Source of the DNA: Dictyostelium discoideum
Taxonomy: Eukaryota
Length of the DNA: 64,000 nt
Direction of reading: 5' to 3'
Assembly (NCBI GenBank): GCA_000004695.1
Contig: CM000154.2
Span: 1,280,001 to 1,344,000 of the forward strand
The notes under the pieces were generated by a model that was given only the letters and a program-made list of their open reading frames with translations, did no database searches and had not been told where the DNA came from. The translations under genes were made by a program, and so were the position numbers. Each line of letters opens with the position of its first letter. Positions within the stretch are counted from its first letter, which is position 1. Positions 23,437-41,143 of the stretch are shown in pieces.

Positions 23437-25635
23437 GGGTTATCCAGAACAAACTGCATCAGAAGTTGTAGCAAAAATTTTTACATTTGGTTCATATAGA
23501 TTGGGTGTACATGGCCCAGGTAGTGATATTGATACACTTTGTGTTGGTCCAAAACATATAATGAGATCAGACTTTTTTGATGATTTATCAGATATTTTAA
23601 AAGTTCATCCAGAAATTACAGAATTTACAGTAAATATTATTAGATAATTATTATTTATATTAAAATATAACAAATCAAATTAAATTTTTAATACTAATTT
23701 ATTAATTTTTTATTTATTTTTTTTATTTTTTATTTTTATTTATAGACAGTCAAAGATGCATTTGTACCAGTTATAACAATGGTATTTTCAGGTATACCAA
23801 TTGATTTAATTTATGCAAAATTAGCATTAACAGCAATTCCAGAAGAATTAAATGATTTAATTGATGAATCATTTTTAAAGAATATTGATGAAAAGAGTAT
23901 TCTTAGTTTAAATGGTTGTCGTGTGACTGATCAAATTTTAAAATTGGTACCAAATATTCCAAACTTTAGAATGGCATTAAGATGTATTAAACTTTGGGCA
24001 ATTAGAAGAGGTATTTATTCAAATATTTTAGGATTTTTAGGTGGTGTATCGTGGGCACTTTTAACAGCAAGAATCTGTCAACTCTATCCAAACTCTGCAC
24101 CAAGTACCATCATTCATAGATTTTTCAAGGTATATGAAATTTGGAAATGGCCAGCACCCATTTTATTATGTCACATTCAAGAGGGTGGTATTTTAGGTCC
24201 AAAGGTTTGGAATCCAAAGAGAGATAAAGCTCATTTAATGCCAATTATTACACCAGCATATCCTTCAATGAATTCCACTTACAATGTATCCAAATCAACA
24301 TTACAATTAATGAAGAGTGAATTTGTTAGAGGTGCAGAGATCACAAGAAAGATTGAAACTGGTGAATGTACTTGGAAGAATTTATTGGAGAAATGTGATT
24401 TCTTCACTCGTTATAGTTTTTATATAGAGATCGATTGTTATTCAATGAATGAAGAAGATTCTAGAAAATGGGAGGGTTGGATAGAATCCAAATTAAGATT
24501 TTTAATTTCAAACTTAGAGTCTACACCAAAGATGAAGTTTGCTGTGCCATATCCAAAAGGATTTACAAACAATCTTCATAAAGCAAATAATCCCGATCAA
24601 ATTTGTACCTCTTTTTTCATGGGTCTCTCTTTTAATTTTTCAAATACACCAGGTGCCGATAAAAGTGTTGATTTAACCAAAGCTGTGACTGAATTCACTG
24701 GTATAATTAAAGATTGGCTTAGAACTCAACCAAATCCTGATACAATGGATATTAAAGTACAATATATTAAAAAGAAACAACTTCCAGCTTTTGTAAAGGA
24801 TGAAGGTCCTGAAGAACCTGTAAAAACTACAAAGAAGAGATCTTCAACTGGTGAACCTTCTGCAACTAGAAAGAAATTAAAAAGTGAAAATTCTGATAAT
24901 AAATTAAATTCTCCAAAATCTCCAATAACTACAAATATTAATTCTACACCTACTACTTCCACTCCTACTACTACTGCTAATACTACCACTAATACTACCA
25001 CTGCTACTACTACTACCACTACTACAACTGTTCCGATCACTTCCACACCAACTTCAAATATTTCTTCACCAACTATGAATTCTACAGAGTTAACTACACC
25101 AACTTCAACCTCTACAACAACTTCAAATGATTCAATTACAACTCCTCCTACCACTACAACTATCAACTCTGTACAACCACCATCTGCACAACCAACCGAA
25201 AATGGTTCATCAACATCTAATTCACCAACATCTACTTCAATAAATAATACCGCATTACCACCCAATCCAACCACAAACAGTGAGTCAACTATTGAAACAA
25301 CAATAACCCTACCAACAACATTAGAGTCACAAACATCAACATTAAAAGATAGTAACGAAATATCCACCAATGGTACAGCAGTTGCAACTGAACCAACAAT
25401 TACTTCACCATCTGTAAATATAAATGAATCATCAACATCAACATCAACAACAACTACAACAACAGTAACCGAACAACAAATTCAAACTGCACCAACAACT
25501 GCTACTCCAATAAATAAAACCATTGTAAACACTATGGAAGTTAATGAATTAAGCTTCATTTCATCTTCAAGTGAAACTTCTCAATCTAAACCACCACCAA
25601 AGAAACCAACTATCAGTATTATTAGAGGCAATTAA
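22980..25635 (+). CDS. Poly(A) polymerase (canonical nuclear PAP) with a long S/T/N-rich C-terminal tail. Three exons: 22980..23327, 23437..23628, 23746..25635.
   Basis: Exon 1 ...[22 protein letters not shown] then GTAAAT. Exon 2 [47 protein letters not shown]... (nucleotidyltransferase GS...DID motif), then gtaaat. Exon 3 from tatag|ACA: [27 protein letters not shown]...[62 protein letters not shown], almost identical in blocks to vertebrate PAPOLA. The minus ORF 24726..25370 is an antisense artefact. Confidence 0.9.
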
Positions 25636-26169: not shown

Positions 26170-27857
26170 TTAATGATGTTCATCGAAATCGATAGCATGT
26201 TGTAATTGATTTAAATCTTCGATAGTTCTACGTTTTAAGATGAGGTCACGAGCAGTATCCATTTTACCATAGTTACCATAACATAAGACACCAACGACAT
26301 TATTGTTATCATTCAAGTAATAGATGTTACCTTTGGTGTAGGATTGTTTAGTTTCATCAGAGGATGGCTTCTCCCAAACTGAAAATGTTTTTAATTTTGA
26401 GCTAGTATTACCAACAGCTTCAAAACCAACACCTGGTGTTAAATCTGACCAAAAGAATGGTTGATATGTGTATGGAGCTGGTGTATCCTTAGTTGACATA
26501 TTTGAACCAGCCATTTCACCAGTGGCACGTGCATGGTCATGATGTTCAACACGACGACGTACACCTAAACTGAAATCATAATAGGATGCGACATCACCAG
26601 CGACATATAGATCGGTACGAGCTTGAAGTTCTGGATTGACGACATAACCACCATTTATTGGATCTATTTCTAATGTTGTACTTTTAACTACATTTGTATT
26701 TGGAATGATACCGGCGGCAACAACAACATGATCAGTTTCAAAGGTTTTACCATTGTTTAAAGTGACAGTTAATCTACCATTTTCAGAGTTATCGACTACA
26801 TCTTTAATTAAAGTACCAGTGTGAACATTAACACCACTCTTAATGATTTCTTCAGTTGCATATTTACTAAGATAGTCTGGGAATAAAGTACTTAATACAC
26901 CAGATTCTGGGAAAATTTGATCGATTTTAATGTTTTTATCTTGAAAGTTTGAATTGATTGCACAAGTTAATTCACTACCTAAGAAACCACCACCTAAAAC
27001 GGTGACATGTTTACCACCATCCTTTACAACTTCATAAAGTTTTCTAAAATCTTCAACGGTTCTATAGGTTGAAATCTTTTTATCATTGGTTGATGTGAAT
27101 TTTAATTGACGTGGTTCACCACCTGTTGCAATTAAACATTTGTCATAACGAATTAATTTACCATCATTTAATAATACTAATTTTTCATCAATATGTAAAT
27201 CAATAACTTTTTTAGTTCTAATAAATTGTAAAATTTCATTACCATATGCTGATTCTTGTTCATATAATAAACTAAAAAAAATAAAAAAATAAAAAAATAA
27301 AAATAATTAATATTATGAAAAAGACTAATATAAATAAATAATAAAATGAAAATAACATACTTTTGTTTTTTACCAGACCAATCAGAGAAATTTAAAGTAT
27401 TTACAACATTATCATCTTTAGTAGCCCAAAGTGATTTTGTTAATGGTGGTCTTTGATATGGAACTTCATACTCTTTTGAAATTAAAAGGATAGTTGCTTC
27501 TTTATCATTCTCTAAGATTTTATCAATTGCATGGTAAGCTGCTGTTCCACCACCAATGATTACATATTTAAATTGTTCAATATCATATTCTTCATCCATC
27601 TTCTTTTGATAATCTTCTTTGGTTTTTGGTGGTTGTGATTTTTTTTCTTTGACATCAATTGATGGAGTTGATTCTGGTTCTTTTTCTTGATCTAAAAATA
27701 CACAACCAGCAAATAATGCTGATACACCAACTGATACACCAACAATTGATTTGAATGCATTGTTTCCATTTTTACCACTGAATCTTCCTTTTGATGAGGA
27801 TTGGTAAAATCTATTTCCAATTGTAAATTTTGTTAATTTTGTTAAATTTCTTATCAT
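26170..27857 (-). CDS. aifA: Apoptosis-inducing factor (AIF)-like FAD/NAD-dependent oxidoreductase, mitochondrial. Two exons: 27361..27857 and 26170..27271.
   Basis: Exon 1: presequence-like N-terminus, then FKYVIIGGGTAAYHAID (FAD GxGxxG)...PYQRPPLTKSLWA, ending ...GKKQ(aa) with GTATGT. Acceptor ttttag|T. I translated exon 2 completely and it is open: LLYEQESAYG...RYDKCLIATGGEPR...VLGGGFLGSELTCAI...TDHVVVAAGIIPN...DLYVAGDVASYYD...RRVEHHDHARATGEMAGSNM...YGKMDTARDLI...*. It is collinear with human AIFM1. About 532 aa. The intron is 89 nt, which explains the frame break in the ORF track. Confidence 0.85.
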
Positions 27858-32160: not shown

Positions 32161-32495
32161 TTTATTATTATTTCTTTTGTATATAAATATAAAAAAAAAA
32201 AAAAAAACGAAAAGCTAAAAAAAAAAAAAAGTTTTTTGTCCAAAGCCTTTTTTTTTTTTAATAAAAAAATATAAAAATCTGTTTTATTTTTAGATTTGGA
32301 AAAAAAGAGAATTTCTAAACACAAATTAATAATTAAATAAATTATTTAATTTTTATTTAAATAAAAATAAAACTATTATTGAGCTCTGAATTATCATAAA
32401 AAAAAAAAATTAAAGAAAAATAATAAAAAAAAATTTAAGGAAAAAAATATATATTTTTTTTTTTTTAAAAAGATAGAGTTAAATAAAAAATTTAT

Positions 32496-33538
32496 TTAGT
32501 TGGCAGCAGCGATATCTTTGGCGTATTGAGCAAGAGTACCGTGGTTGGTGATGACTTTAACGTTGGCACCATCGTTCATTAAACGACCGTCAGCTTTTAA
32601 TTTTTGGTAAGCTTCACGATTGTAGGCGGTGAAACCCCATTTCTTTGAGACAACGATCTTTTGACGACCTGGGAATTTGTATGAAGATCTACGTAAAGCT
32701 TCAACAACGTTGGCTAACATATTATCTCTGGTTCTGATGGAGAAAATGATTTGACCAATATTAACACGAGCAACAGTACCCATTGGTTTACCGAAGGCAC
32801 CTCTCATACCGGTTTGAAGTCTATCTGCACCAGCGCATGAAAGCATCTTGTTAATACGTAATACGTGCCATGGGTGAACTCTGACTCTCATGTGGAATGA
32901 ATCTTTACCACCAGTCTTTGAGATGTATTTGTTACATGAAATACGACCAGCTTCAATGGCTTCTGATGAAAGTTGTTCTTTTTCGAGGGAGATGAGATGA
33001 ACACATAATGGGAATTCATCAGTTGATGCTTTCTTACGACCTAAATCGAAAATTCTGATTTTAGCATCTGGTACACCACGACAATATCTAGATTTGATGT
33101 ATGGTTTGTTCTAAAGTGAGAGAGGTTAGTTCTCTTCTACTTTTTTTTAAAAAAAAAATAAAATAAAATTAACTTACTTTGCAATATCTGTAGCTATTTT
33201 TTCCAATTGGTTTATAATTTTTTTTTTATAAAGTTGAAATTTTAGTTAGTATCTATATTCATCATAATCCTTTATCTGTATAATAAGTCCAATATAAATA
33301 TATCCTCATTCTTCAATCAATCCAATATCATCATAAATAATCTATAATCAATCCTATCAATCTTTATTTCTCAATCCCATATCTAACCTATTGATAATTA
33401 CCATCTAGCTGGACCTAAATATTTTTAAAAAATAATGTTAGTTTATTTTATTTTTTTTTATTTTTTATTTTTTTTTTTAATTAATTTTTTATGTGATATG
33501 TGATATAGTGACACATACGACGACCCATTTTTTATATT
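32496..33538 (-). CDS. rpl10: 60S ribosomal protein L10 (uL16/QM), with three 5' micro-exons. Exons: 33529..33538 (10 nt), 33402..33414 (13 nt), 33178..33193 (16 nt), 32496..33110.
   Basis: ATGGGTCGTC|gtatgt, then tttag|GTCCAGCTAGATG|gtaatt, then aatag|CTACAGATATTGCAAA|gtaagt, then tttag|AACAAACCATAC... The splice yields MGRRPARCYRYCK|[109 protein letters not shown].... This is an exact match to the universal RPL10 N-terminus. 217 aa. Confidence 0.88.
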
Positions 33539-33629
33539 TTGGTATGACTAAAACTAAGAGTGAAGAAATAAAATTTTAATGTGAAAAAAAAAACGACAAG
33601 GTTTGGGAAAAATTTTCAAAAAATTTTTG

Positions 33630-33665
<36 letters not shown>

Positions 33666-34367
33666 ATTGAATGTAAAAAAAAAGTTTGTTACAAATTTTT
33701 GGACTTAAATATTTTTTTAATTTTCATTTTTATTTTTTTTTTCTCAATAAAAGAATAAAAGAATAAAATTAAAGAACACCCTTCATGAAGTGTTGGTTAA
33801 TAATAATTATGTTTTTTTTATTTATTACTTTATTTTTTTTCATTTTTTTTTTTTTTTTTTTGTTTATTAATTATTATTATTTTTATTATTTTTTTTTTTT
33901 TTTATTAATTATTATTATCATTATTATTTTTTTTTGTTTTTTTTTTTTTTTTGGGGATCCTATTCTATTATTTTTATAATTTTTTTACTATTTTATTTTT
34001 TTATTTTTTCATTTTTTCATTTTATAATTTTTATTGTTTTATTTTTTTTATTTTTTTTTTATTATTGTTTAATTTTTTTTATTATTGTCATTATTATTAT
34101 ATTTTCATTATTTTTTTTTTTTTTTTTTTTTTATTATTTTATATTTTTATTATTTGTCCCCATTTCATATTTAGAAAATGGATAAAATTCTTATATATGA
34201 ACTGTTGAAAATGAGCACTCAAATTTTTTTTTTTTTTAAAAAAAATAGTTCCCAATTTAGAAACATTTTCTTTTTTATTTTTTTTTTTTTTTCAATTCCC
34301 AAAGCCAACAAATAAATTTTAATTAAATTTTAATTTTTTCAATTTTTCAATTTTTTTTTTAAATTTT

Positions 34368-34423
<56 letters not shown>

Positions 34424-34542: not shown

Positions 34543-35018
34543 ATGTCTGTAGGTATTATTTTTTATTTTTTTTTATTCAATTTTTTTTTTTTTTAATTTT
34601 TCCAACAATAATATTTTATAAAGTAACGTTTTTATTGTTTATTTTTTTTTATTATTTTTTTTTTTTTTTTATGTATACTAACAAAAACAAATTATAATTC
34701 TTCATCTAATTGTAGGGTGTTAAAAAATTTATTCCATTATTAGATCGTATATTAGTTGAAAAGATTTCAAATCAAGCAACTAAAACTTCAGGTGGTATTT
34801 TCATTCCAACCAACAAAGATGCACCAACAAACAATGCTAAAGTAATTGCAGTAGGTACAGGTTCAGTTAAATTAGATGGTTCATTTATTGATCCAATCGT
34901 AAAAGAAGGTGATATTGTTTTAATTAATCCAAAAGCAAGATCAAATACTGTTCCATGGGGTGATAAAACTTATCACTTACTCAGTGAAAATGATATTTTA
35001 GGTATAATTGAAAATTAA
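34543..35018 (+). CDS. 10 kDa chaperonin (Cpn10/Hsp10/GroES-like), mitochondrial. Two exons: 34543..34548 and 34716..35018.
   Basis: ATG TCT|gtaggt ... ttgtag|GGT GTT AAA AAA TTT ATT CCA... gives [52 protein letters not shown]...[10 protein letters not shown]...[15 protein letters not shown]. About 102 aa. The GroES signature (P-L-xDR-[IV]LV, GGI, mobile loop) is clear. Confidence 0.85.
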
Positions 35019-40045: not shown

Positions 40046-41143
40046 TTATTTAAATTCTTTAACTAATTGTTTGAATTCAGAGATTAAGTCATTAACAGTT
40101 AAAGAACCTCTAACGACATTATCACGAGTACGAACATTGACGGTGTTACCATTAATTTCTTCTTGACCAACGACCAAGATGTAATTGTATTGAGCAAGTT
40201 GAGCTTCACGAACTTTTTTAGAGATAGTTTTATCGGAATCATCGATATCACAATAGAAACCAGCATCAGAGATTTCTTTACAAACCTTTTGACCGTATTC
40301 ATTGTGAGTTTTATTGACAGTGACGACGATAGCTTGACGTGGTGAGACCCATAATGGCCATTTACCACCGGTATGTTCGATTAAAATTGCCATCATTCTT
40401 TCGACGGAACCCAAGATAGCACGATGAATGATAACTGGTCTCTTTTTGAGTTCGGCAGCATCATCAGATTGATACTCTAAATCGAAACGAATTGGTAATT
40501 GGAAATCTAATTGAATGGTGGCACATTGATGACTTCTCTTGAGACAATCGGTGATGTGAATATCAATCTTTGGACCATAGAAAGCACCATCTTTTGGATT
40601 TAATTTCCATGGTTTACCAAATTTATTGAGGGCTTTCTCGAGGGAGGCTTCAGCAATATCCCATTGAGCGATTTCACCAAGGAAATTGTCTGGACGAGTT
40701 GAAAGTTCTAAACCAAATTCGAAACCAAAAATACCATAAACATATTGCATGAAACCTAAACAACTATTGATTTCATCTTCAATCATTTCGGTGGTACAAA
40801 AGATGTGAGCATCATCTTGTTGGAATTTACGTACACGAGTTAAACCAGTCAATGCACCTGCTAATTCATTACGATGTAAAACACCAAAATCTGCAAAACG
40901 TAATGGTAATTCACGATATGATCTTTGACGTGATCCAAACATTAAACAATGACCTGGACAATTCATTGGTTTCAATGAGAAATTGTCTTTATCAACTGGT
41001 AATACAAACATATTTTCGGAATACTTTTGCCAATGTCCTGATTGTTCCCAAAGTTTTTGTGAGAAAATTGATGGTGAAATAACTTCAGTAAATCCTCTTC
41101 TATGATATTCTTCCTTTATTTTTTTTTTTTTTAAGAAAAAAAA

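Follow-up and report, generated by a model that had tools for sequence, protein, structure and literature searches.

The minus-strand feature analyzed here is almost certainly the 5' end of nuclear rpl10 of Dictyostelium discoideum, predicted to encode the large-subunit ribosomal protein uL16 (RPL10/QM), with a coding sequence split by three GT..AG introns and the first 13 residues of the protein spread over coding pieces of 10, 13, and 16 bases (Table 1). All positions refer to the window, that is, the whole 64-kb stretch of DNA that was analyzed. Joining the four coding pieces gave a 654-nt coding sequence (CDS) that is in frame and translates into a 217-amino-acid uL16/RPL10 protein with the N terminus MGRRPARCYRYCKNKPY and a C terminus ending in AAAN; the N-terminal peptide predicted from the gene model is GRRPARCYRYCK. 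The initial annotation had proposed that this N terminus is obtained by splicing the three short pieces onto the main exon, through canonical GT..AG junctions and with a closed frame. The proposal held, since the exon sequences were exact, the path was unique, the product equaled EAL63318.2, and the three introns, of 104, 208, and 67 nt, left the frame intact. Only the second intron, previously placed at 33199..33395 with a length of 197 nt, had to be redrawn, to 208 nt at 33401-33194.

TABLE 1 Coding exons, introns, and intronic motifs of rpl10 (positions in the 64-kb window)
Feature	Position	Strand	Length (nt)	Phase	GC (%)	Sequence	Remarks
Exon 1, coding part	33519..33528	-	10			ATGGGTCGTC, donor GTATGT	Met-Gly-Arg and first base of Arg4
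Intron 1	33415..33518	-	104	1	11.5	GTATGT...TTTAG
Branch motif, intron 1	33437-33441	-				CTAAC	About 23 nt from the 3' splice site; intron without internal AG
Exon 2	33402..33414	-	13			TTTAG, then GTCCAGCTAGATG, then GTAATT	End of Arg4, Pro-Ala-Arg, first two bases of Cys8
Intron 2	33194..33401	-	208	2	21.6	GTAATT...AATAG	G 36 versus C 9
GATTG cluster, intron 2	33314..33381	-				GATTG (5 copies), GGATTG (3 copies)	Sense-strand motifs
Branch-point consensus, intron 2	33245..33251	-				TACTAAC	Branch A at 33246, 52 nt before the final base of the intron; also kept in L001-L006 and L009
Exon 3	33178..33193	-	16			AATAG, then CTACAGATATTGCAAA, then GTAAGT	Last base of Cys8, Tyr-Arg-Tyr-Cys-Lys
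Intron 3	33111..33177	-	67	0	20.9	GTAAGT...TTTAG
Branch motif, intron 3	33125-33129	-				CTAAC
Exon 4	32496..33110	-	615			TTTAG, then AACAAACC...; first bases after the acceptor also given as AACAAACCATAC...	Residues 14-217 and TAA stop (32498-32496)

Identity of the gene and its product

The spliced product was 100% identical, over all 217 residues, to EAL63318.2 (P0121), which is named S60 ribosomal protein L10 of D. discoideum AX4 and carries the UniRef name uL16. The same 217 amino acids make up the deposited sequence of chain F (60S RIBOSOMAL PROTEIN L10) in the PDB entries 5an9, 5anb, 5anc, and 6qkl, which places the protein in the 60S subunit. Residues 12 to 166 matched the Pfam domain Ribosomal_L16 (PF00252) with 125.3 bits against a cutoff of 27.9 (E = 2e-36), and nearly the whole of this domain is encoded by exon 4. 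Compared with the uL16 proteins of other eukaryotes, the product showed 72 to 90% identity over 95 to 100% of the length, as expected for a member of the family.

At the DNA level, the gene in the window is identical to that in assembly GCA_054883475.1, and the public gene call in L004 (CM142511.1) shares its ATG and its stop with the window gene, spans 1033 nt, and agrees with it base for base. Since both the protein and the DNA under this ATG-to-stop call are identical, the public model must be built from these four coding exons. The micro-exon structure is not new, as it is that of the existing public gene model, whose product is also present in solved ribosome structures. No difference was seen between the window gene and the annotated AX4 rpl10 (EAL63318.2; chain F of 5AN9, 5ANB, 5ANC, and 6QKL); it is another copy of the same gene. 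The order cpn10 - rpl10 - SET-domain gene was also kept in the public assemblies that were compared. A literature search on Dictyostelium micro-exons and on the rpl10 gene structure returned nothing specific and no paper commenting on the rpl10 micro-exons.

A single splice path yields the conserved N terminus

Splice paths were searched exhaustively, allowing any GT...AG jump of 30 to 900 nt and requiring the exact protein. Even when every ATG up to 600 nt upstream was admitted as a start, exactly one path was obtained (10/13/16/615), in which the introns fall after CDS nucleotides 10, 23, and 39; no alternative ATG exon giving the same N terminus, the outcome that would have spoken against the proposed structure, was present among these ATGs. 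When the 418 nt of the 5' region were shuffled, none of the 2,000 shuffles yielded any splice path. The exon arrangement of rpl10 is not due to chance. Other 5' ends are used by the public models of two relatives (P0122 and P0124, described below), but the N termini of these models (MGRPTDIAKYCRG... and MKEDTNYNFIKNKKF...) are matched by no other uL16, whereas MGRRPARCYRYCKNKPY is common to animal and fungal uL16, and the micro-exon sequences and their splice sites are kept across species. With a single path encoding the conserved N terminus, it is exceedingly improbable that the true rpl10 mRNA begins in some other way, such as with a different ATG exon, or that one of the micro-exons is a computational coincidence.

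Internal coding micro-exons, understood as exons of 15 to 30 nt or less that are bounded by GT..AG introns on both sides and are needed for the frame, are represented here by exons 2 (13 nt) and 3 (16 nt). Exon 1 does not qualify as a micro-exon because it also contains the 5' untranslated region (5'UTR); the physical exon is longer, extending upstream, and the 10 nt are its coding part alone. Therefore, of the three micro-exons below 20 nt originally described, the two internal ones stand, and the first is a short coding portion attached to the 5'UTR.

Each of the three introns contains a CTAAC-type branch motif (Table 1), with no AG in the stretch from the motif to the acceptor, and in intron 1 of all group-4 species the acceptor is the only AG. 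Near the 5' splice site of intron 1 (33490-33511), three TCACATA-like units were observed on the sense strand (TRF period 7). The intron 1 block GTATGTGTCACTATATCACATATCACAT is almost unchanged in L002-L006 and recognizable in D. citrinum (L001) and D. firmibasis. In intron 3, the CTAAC motif is flanked by short complementary GAGA...TCTC arms, which might form a small hairpin; every one of the six assemblies with intron 3 (L001-L006) retains the arms, and no covariation was seen across them.

Distribution of the three introns among dictyostelids

The orthologous dictyostelid loci were run through the same splice-path search, which returned a single solution at each. In this comparison with related dictyostelids, which the initial annotation had proposed, coding exons of 10/13/16/615 nt were recovered again, in six further assemblies (L001-L006, comprising five with the AX4 protein and D. 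citrinum), and the 13-nt exon was also present in more distant species. Coding exons measured 10/13/631 nt in D. firmibasis and in both paralogues of Acytostelium subglobosum (L010 and L011), 10/13/98/533 nt in D. purpureum, 10/644 nt in Polysphondylium violaceum, and 23/631 nt in Cavenderia fasciculata. The 10 coding nucleotides of exon 1 and its donor were the same in all the dictyostelids examined except Cavenderia, from which intron 1 is missing; intron 2 is missing in P. violaceum. The 13-nt exon, delimited by introns 1 and 2, was found in the D. discoideum-type assemblies, D. firmibasis, D. purpureum, and both Acytostelium paralogues. Following the published phylogeny, we take these species to include members of both main branches of the Dictyostelia, and so of both sides of the deepest split sampled. 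The two Acytostelium paralogues encode an identical protein with the same exon structure and have unrelated introns.

The third intron, to which the 16-nt exon owes its existence, was detected in no assemblies other than those of the D. discoideum/D. citrinum type; the splice-path search found it absent from D. firmibasis, D. purpureum, P. violaceum, Acytostelium, and Cavenderia. We infer from P0122 that D. dimigraforme probably has intron 3 too, given that exon 3 is read out of frame in this mis-modeled protein.

Outside the dictyostelids, the 11-kb RPL10 gene of the echinoderm Amphiura filiformis (L013), whose structure was read by tblastn, has an intron after CDS nucleotide 23 in phase 2, coinciding in place and phase with intron 2 of the dictyostelids. 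The first coding exon of the echinoderm gene measures 23 nt (L013 501-523) and ends in ...CGATG, followed by GTAAGT. An echinoderm intron at this place suggests that the position of intron 2 may be much older than the Dictyostelia. Unlike D. discoideum, Amphiura has no intron after nucleotide 10 or 39 and thus an N-terminal stretch without micro-exons, and Cavenderia is arranged likewise. The Basidiobolus rpl10 copy is intronless and was uninformative as a fungal outgroup.

Overall, the micro-exons may have been created by introns accumulating in a coding stretch that is short and conserved. Introns 1 and 2 would lie on both sides of the deepest dictyostelid split sampled, and the position of intron 2 is used in an animal as well. 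Most parsimoniously, intron 3 is a recent gain in the D. discoideum/citrinum/dimigraforme lineage that separated 16 nt from the main exon, the alternative being independent losses in D. firmibasis and elsewhere; this reading builds on a small species sample and on the published species tree.

Mis-annotated relatives and short exons in the neighborhood

Wrong 5' ends were found in two of about 14 public dictyostelid rpl10 models. In P0122 (D. dimigraforme; 205 amino acids, starting with MGRPTDIAKYCRGV...), the 13-nt exon is skipped and the frame is regained via a cryptic acceptor in exon 4. In P0124, a 230-amino-acid model from a second D. citrinum assembly, the start is an ATG inside intron 2 and the acceptor is read through. 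Both models are correctable. With two wrong models among about 14, the expectation that most automatic gene finders would miss these exons was overstated. The exons are easily placed by protein homology because the introns are short and have strong signals in an extremely AT-rich genome. The gene is still a clean example of very short coding exons breaking automatic models, the conserved uL16 N terminus being lost or replaced in the public models of two close relatives.

The neighboring gene cpn10 (chaperonin 10), on the plus strand and divergent from rpl10, has only ATGTCT (6 nt, 34543-34548) ahead of its first intron (34549-34715, donor GTAGGT), and the joined open reading frame of 102 amino acids has the length of the Cpn10 called in the orthologous loci. 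This 6-nt first coding exon indicates that very short leading coding exons are routine in the D. discoideum genome. The intergenic region of about 1 kb between rpl10 and cpn10, presumably a shared divergent promoter, contains T runs of 38 nt (33628-33665) and 43 nt (34381-34423) on the plus strand. Elsewhere in the window, Pfam matches were obtained for a poly(A) polymerase (23779-25635, plus strand), a pyridine nucleotide-disulfide oxidoreductase fragment (27177-27857, minus strand), and the core of a class II aminoacyl-tRNA synthetase with an HGTP anticodon domain (40046-41011, minus strand). No tRNA genes or Rfam families were found across the 64-kb window.

Intron 2 as a possible host of a small RNA gene

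Intron 2 is twice as long as the neighboring introns, and a small RNA gene within it (a box C/D or H/ACA small nucleolar RNA [snoRNA], a microRNA hairpin, or a class I RNA) could explain both this length and its lower AT content. The scan for snoRNA motifs, which the initial annotation had recommended, came back negative. The sense strand carries the box C-like UGAUGA twice, but CUGA (box D) occurs nowhere in the intron, and UGAUGA is lost in L002 and absent from D. firmibasis and D. purpureum. Consequently, intron 2 does not combine a box C near the 5' end with a box D near the 3' end and a terminal stem, the arrangement of an intron-encoded box C/D snoRNA. A match to SNORD107 was very weak (E = 9.8; 16 bits versus a gathering score of 50); the E-value scan of 32400-33800 against Rfam returned chance-level matches only, and the gathering scan returned none in the 64-kb window.

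As for H/ACA snoRNAs and microRNA precursors, the shuffle test revealed no conserved stable structure of the kind they require: the minimum free energy of intron 2 was -22.3 kcal/mol (z = +0.52), and 137 of 200 shuffled sequences folded at least as well. In an RNA-seq-based catalogue of 47 D. discoideum C/D snoRNAs, all are intergenic with the exception of CD38, located within an intron of DDB_G0283293 (PMC8817022). This is the single intronic case, and rpl10 is absent from the main text of that study. The absence of box D, of an Rfam match, and of a stable fold led us to reject a snoRNA or other noncoding RNA in intron 2, and we consider a small RNA gene there very improbable.

Proposed splicing of the micro-exons

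Both internal micro-exons are likely constitutive, because leaving out either of them, or the two at once, would shift the frame of a gene for a core 60S component. They might be recognized by intron definition, in which exon length would matter little, since each intron is short, has its own strong donor (GTATGT, GTAATT, and GTAAGT) and a branch site of the CTAAC type, and takes as acceptor the first AG that follows. The spacing of 13 and 16 nt from acceptor to next donor would probably impose a sequential removal of neighboring introns.

Complementarity between introns 1 and 2, which would loop out exon 2, gave z values of about -1 to -2 in the group-4 species and -0.2 in D. firmibasis, and it was strong only in Acytostelium paralogue A (-3.9). 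Such pairing would favor the skipping of exon 2 anyway. A structured 5' pre-mRNA was also considered and rejected, the whole 5' region folding with z = -0.74 relative to shuffled sequences.

The GATTG cluster and the distal branch point of intron 2

The caatc/aatcc motifs noted earlier in intron 2, which read GATTG and GGATT on the sense strand, are indeed present, and the five GATTG copies within about 70 nt form the densest GATTG/CAATC cluster of the 64-kb window. The longer GGATTG occurs three times within 60 nt; its total in the window is 24, versus a chance expectation of 22.9. Tandem Repeats Finder (TRF) did not call the cluster in intron 2 as a tandem repeat. Across species, GATTG/CAATC is 7-fold enriched in the 5' introns of rpl10, with at least two copies in 8 of 10 lineages. 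In L003-L006, P. violaceum, D. firmibasis, and both Acytostelium copies (L003-L006 and L008-L011), the cluster in these introns is also the densest of the locus.

The cluster is most likely a decayed simple repeat of the (GATT)n type, common in dictyostelid noncoding DNA and without a specific role, because its strand is flipped in one gene copy, exact copies are missing in some species, and the same runs occur elsewhere. In Acytostelium paralogue B, both introns carry CAATC in place of GATTG, which argues against a conserved RNA motif; the GATTG-type repeats of intron 2 thus lie on opposite strands in the two paralogues. Neither GATTG nor CAATC was found in Cavenderia, and no exact GATTG was found in D. 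citrinum. Elsewhere, GATTGATTG/CAATCAATC runs, which are GATTG/CAATC repeats, are found in unrelated introns of Acytostelium and between genes in P. violaceum. Among close relatives, intron 2 was conserved no better than intron 1 or the upstream flank and promoter, a comparison that is uninformative with 95 to 99% identity everywhere. What weakens a reading without function is that the rpl10 5' introns hold the densest cluster of the locus in 8 of 10 lineages and that the 64-kb window has no other such cluster.

A functional intronic element made up of the G-rich GAUUG/GGAU/GAAGAAUGAGGAU cluster and the distal branch point, acting as a splicing enhancer or as a DNA-level enhancer, is unlikely when both versions are taken together. 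As a splicing enhancer, it would make up for exonic enhancers missing from the 13- and 16-nt exons and possibly permit a regulated, frameshifting skipping of these exons. As a DNA-level enhancer, its TTGA repeats in intron 2 may resemble the Dd-STAT site. The enrichment and the density of the cluster described above fit such an element, as does the excess of G over C in intron 2 of all group-4 species. An intronic splicing enhancer should be kept in strand and position, and the cluster, present in 8 of 10 lineages, is flipped in Acytostelium B and built from a motif that is common in other introns.

The branch point gave a similarly divided picture. The distance from branch point to acceptor in intron 2 is 42 to 92 nt in the six assemblies whose next exon is the 16-nt one versus 24 nt in D. 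firmibasis, which has no intron 3, a weak hint in favor of a function; but L011, at 72 nt, and Cavenderia, at 61 nt, have distal branch points without a micro-exon downstream. The complementarity between introns 1 and 2 was likewise inconsistent between species, with z from -0.2 to -3.9. We regard it as unlikely that the GAUUG/GGAU cluster and the distal branch point would form a lineage-conserved element required for, or regulating, inclusion of the 13- and 16-nt exons. If they did, an unproductive-splicing switch on uL16 output would be possible, since skipping either exon shifts the frame.

Comparison with known micro-exons

In vertebrates, G-rich enhancers in the downstream intron serve micro-exons. 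The rpl10 exons resemble vertebrate micro-exons in adjoining a G-rich intron and in having a distal branch point (52 nt) upstream of the 16-nt exon, and vertebrate neural micro-exons also show an extended region between branch point and 3' splice site (PMC12871342). Vertebrate micro-exons are alternative, tissue regulated, in frame, and dependent on SRRM4-type factors, whereas the rpl10 exons would be constitutive by the frame argument and their neighboring motif does not appear to be conserved in strand.

Plant micro-exons of up to 15 nt are constitutive, conserved, ancient, and fixed in size and phase; they are sometimes adjacent, are lost by intron loss, and are often mis-annotated (Yu et al. 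2022, PMC8831610). The case of rpl10 is similar in that the 13-nt exon is kept across the Dictyostelia and the models of two relatives are wrong, and it differs from the plant case in that it belongs to the Amoebozoa and most of its public models are right.

Implications

Taken together, the micro-exon structure of rpl10 is mechanistically unremarkable, and the observation is correct and ordinary. Its practical value is limited, and what is known of the rpl10 gene and protein is unchanged. Small additions made here are a phylogenetic survey of the three introns, two mis-modeled relatives, and a negative snoRNA result. For the dictyostelids, a 13-nt internal exon is common to species of both main branches, and intron 3 is a probable recent gain in a highly expressed gene, which could make it of interest to studies of intron turnover.
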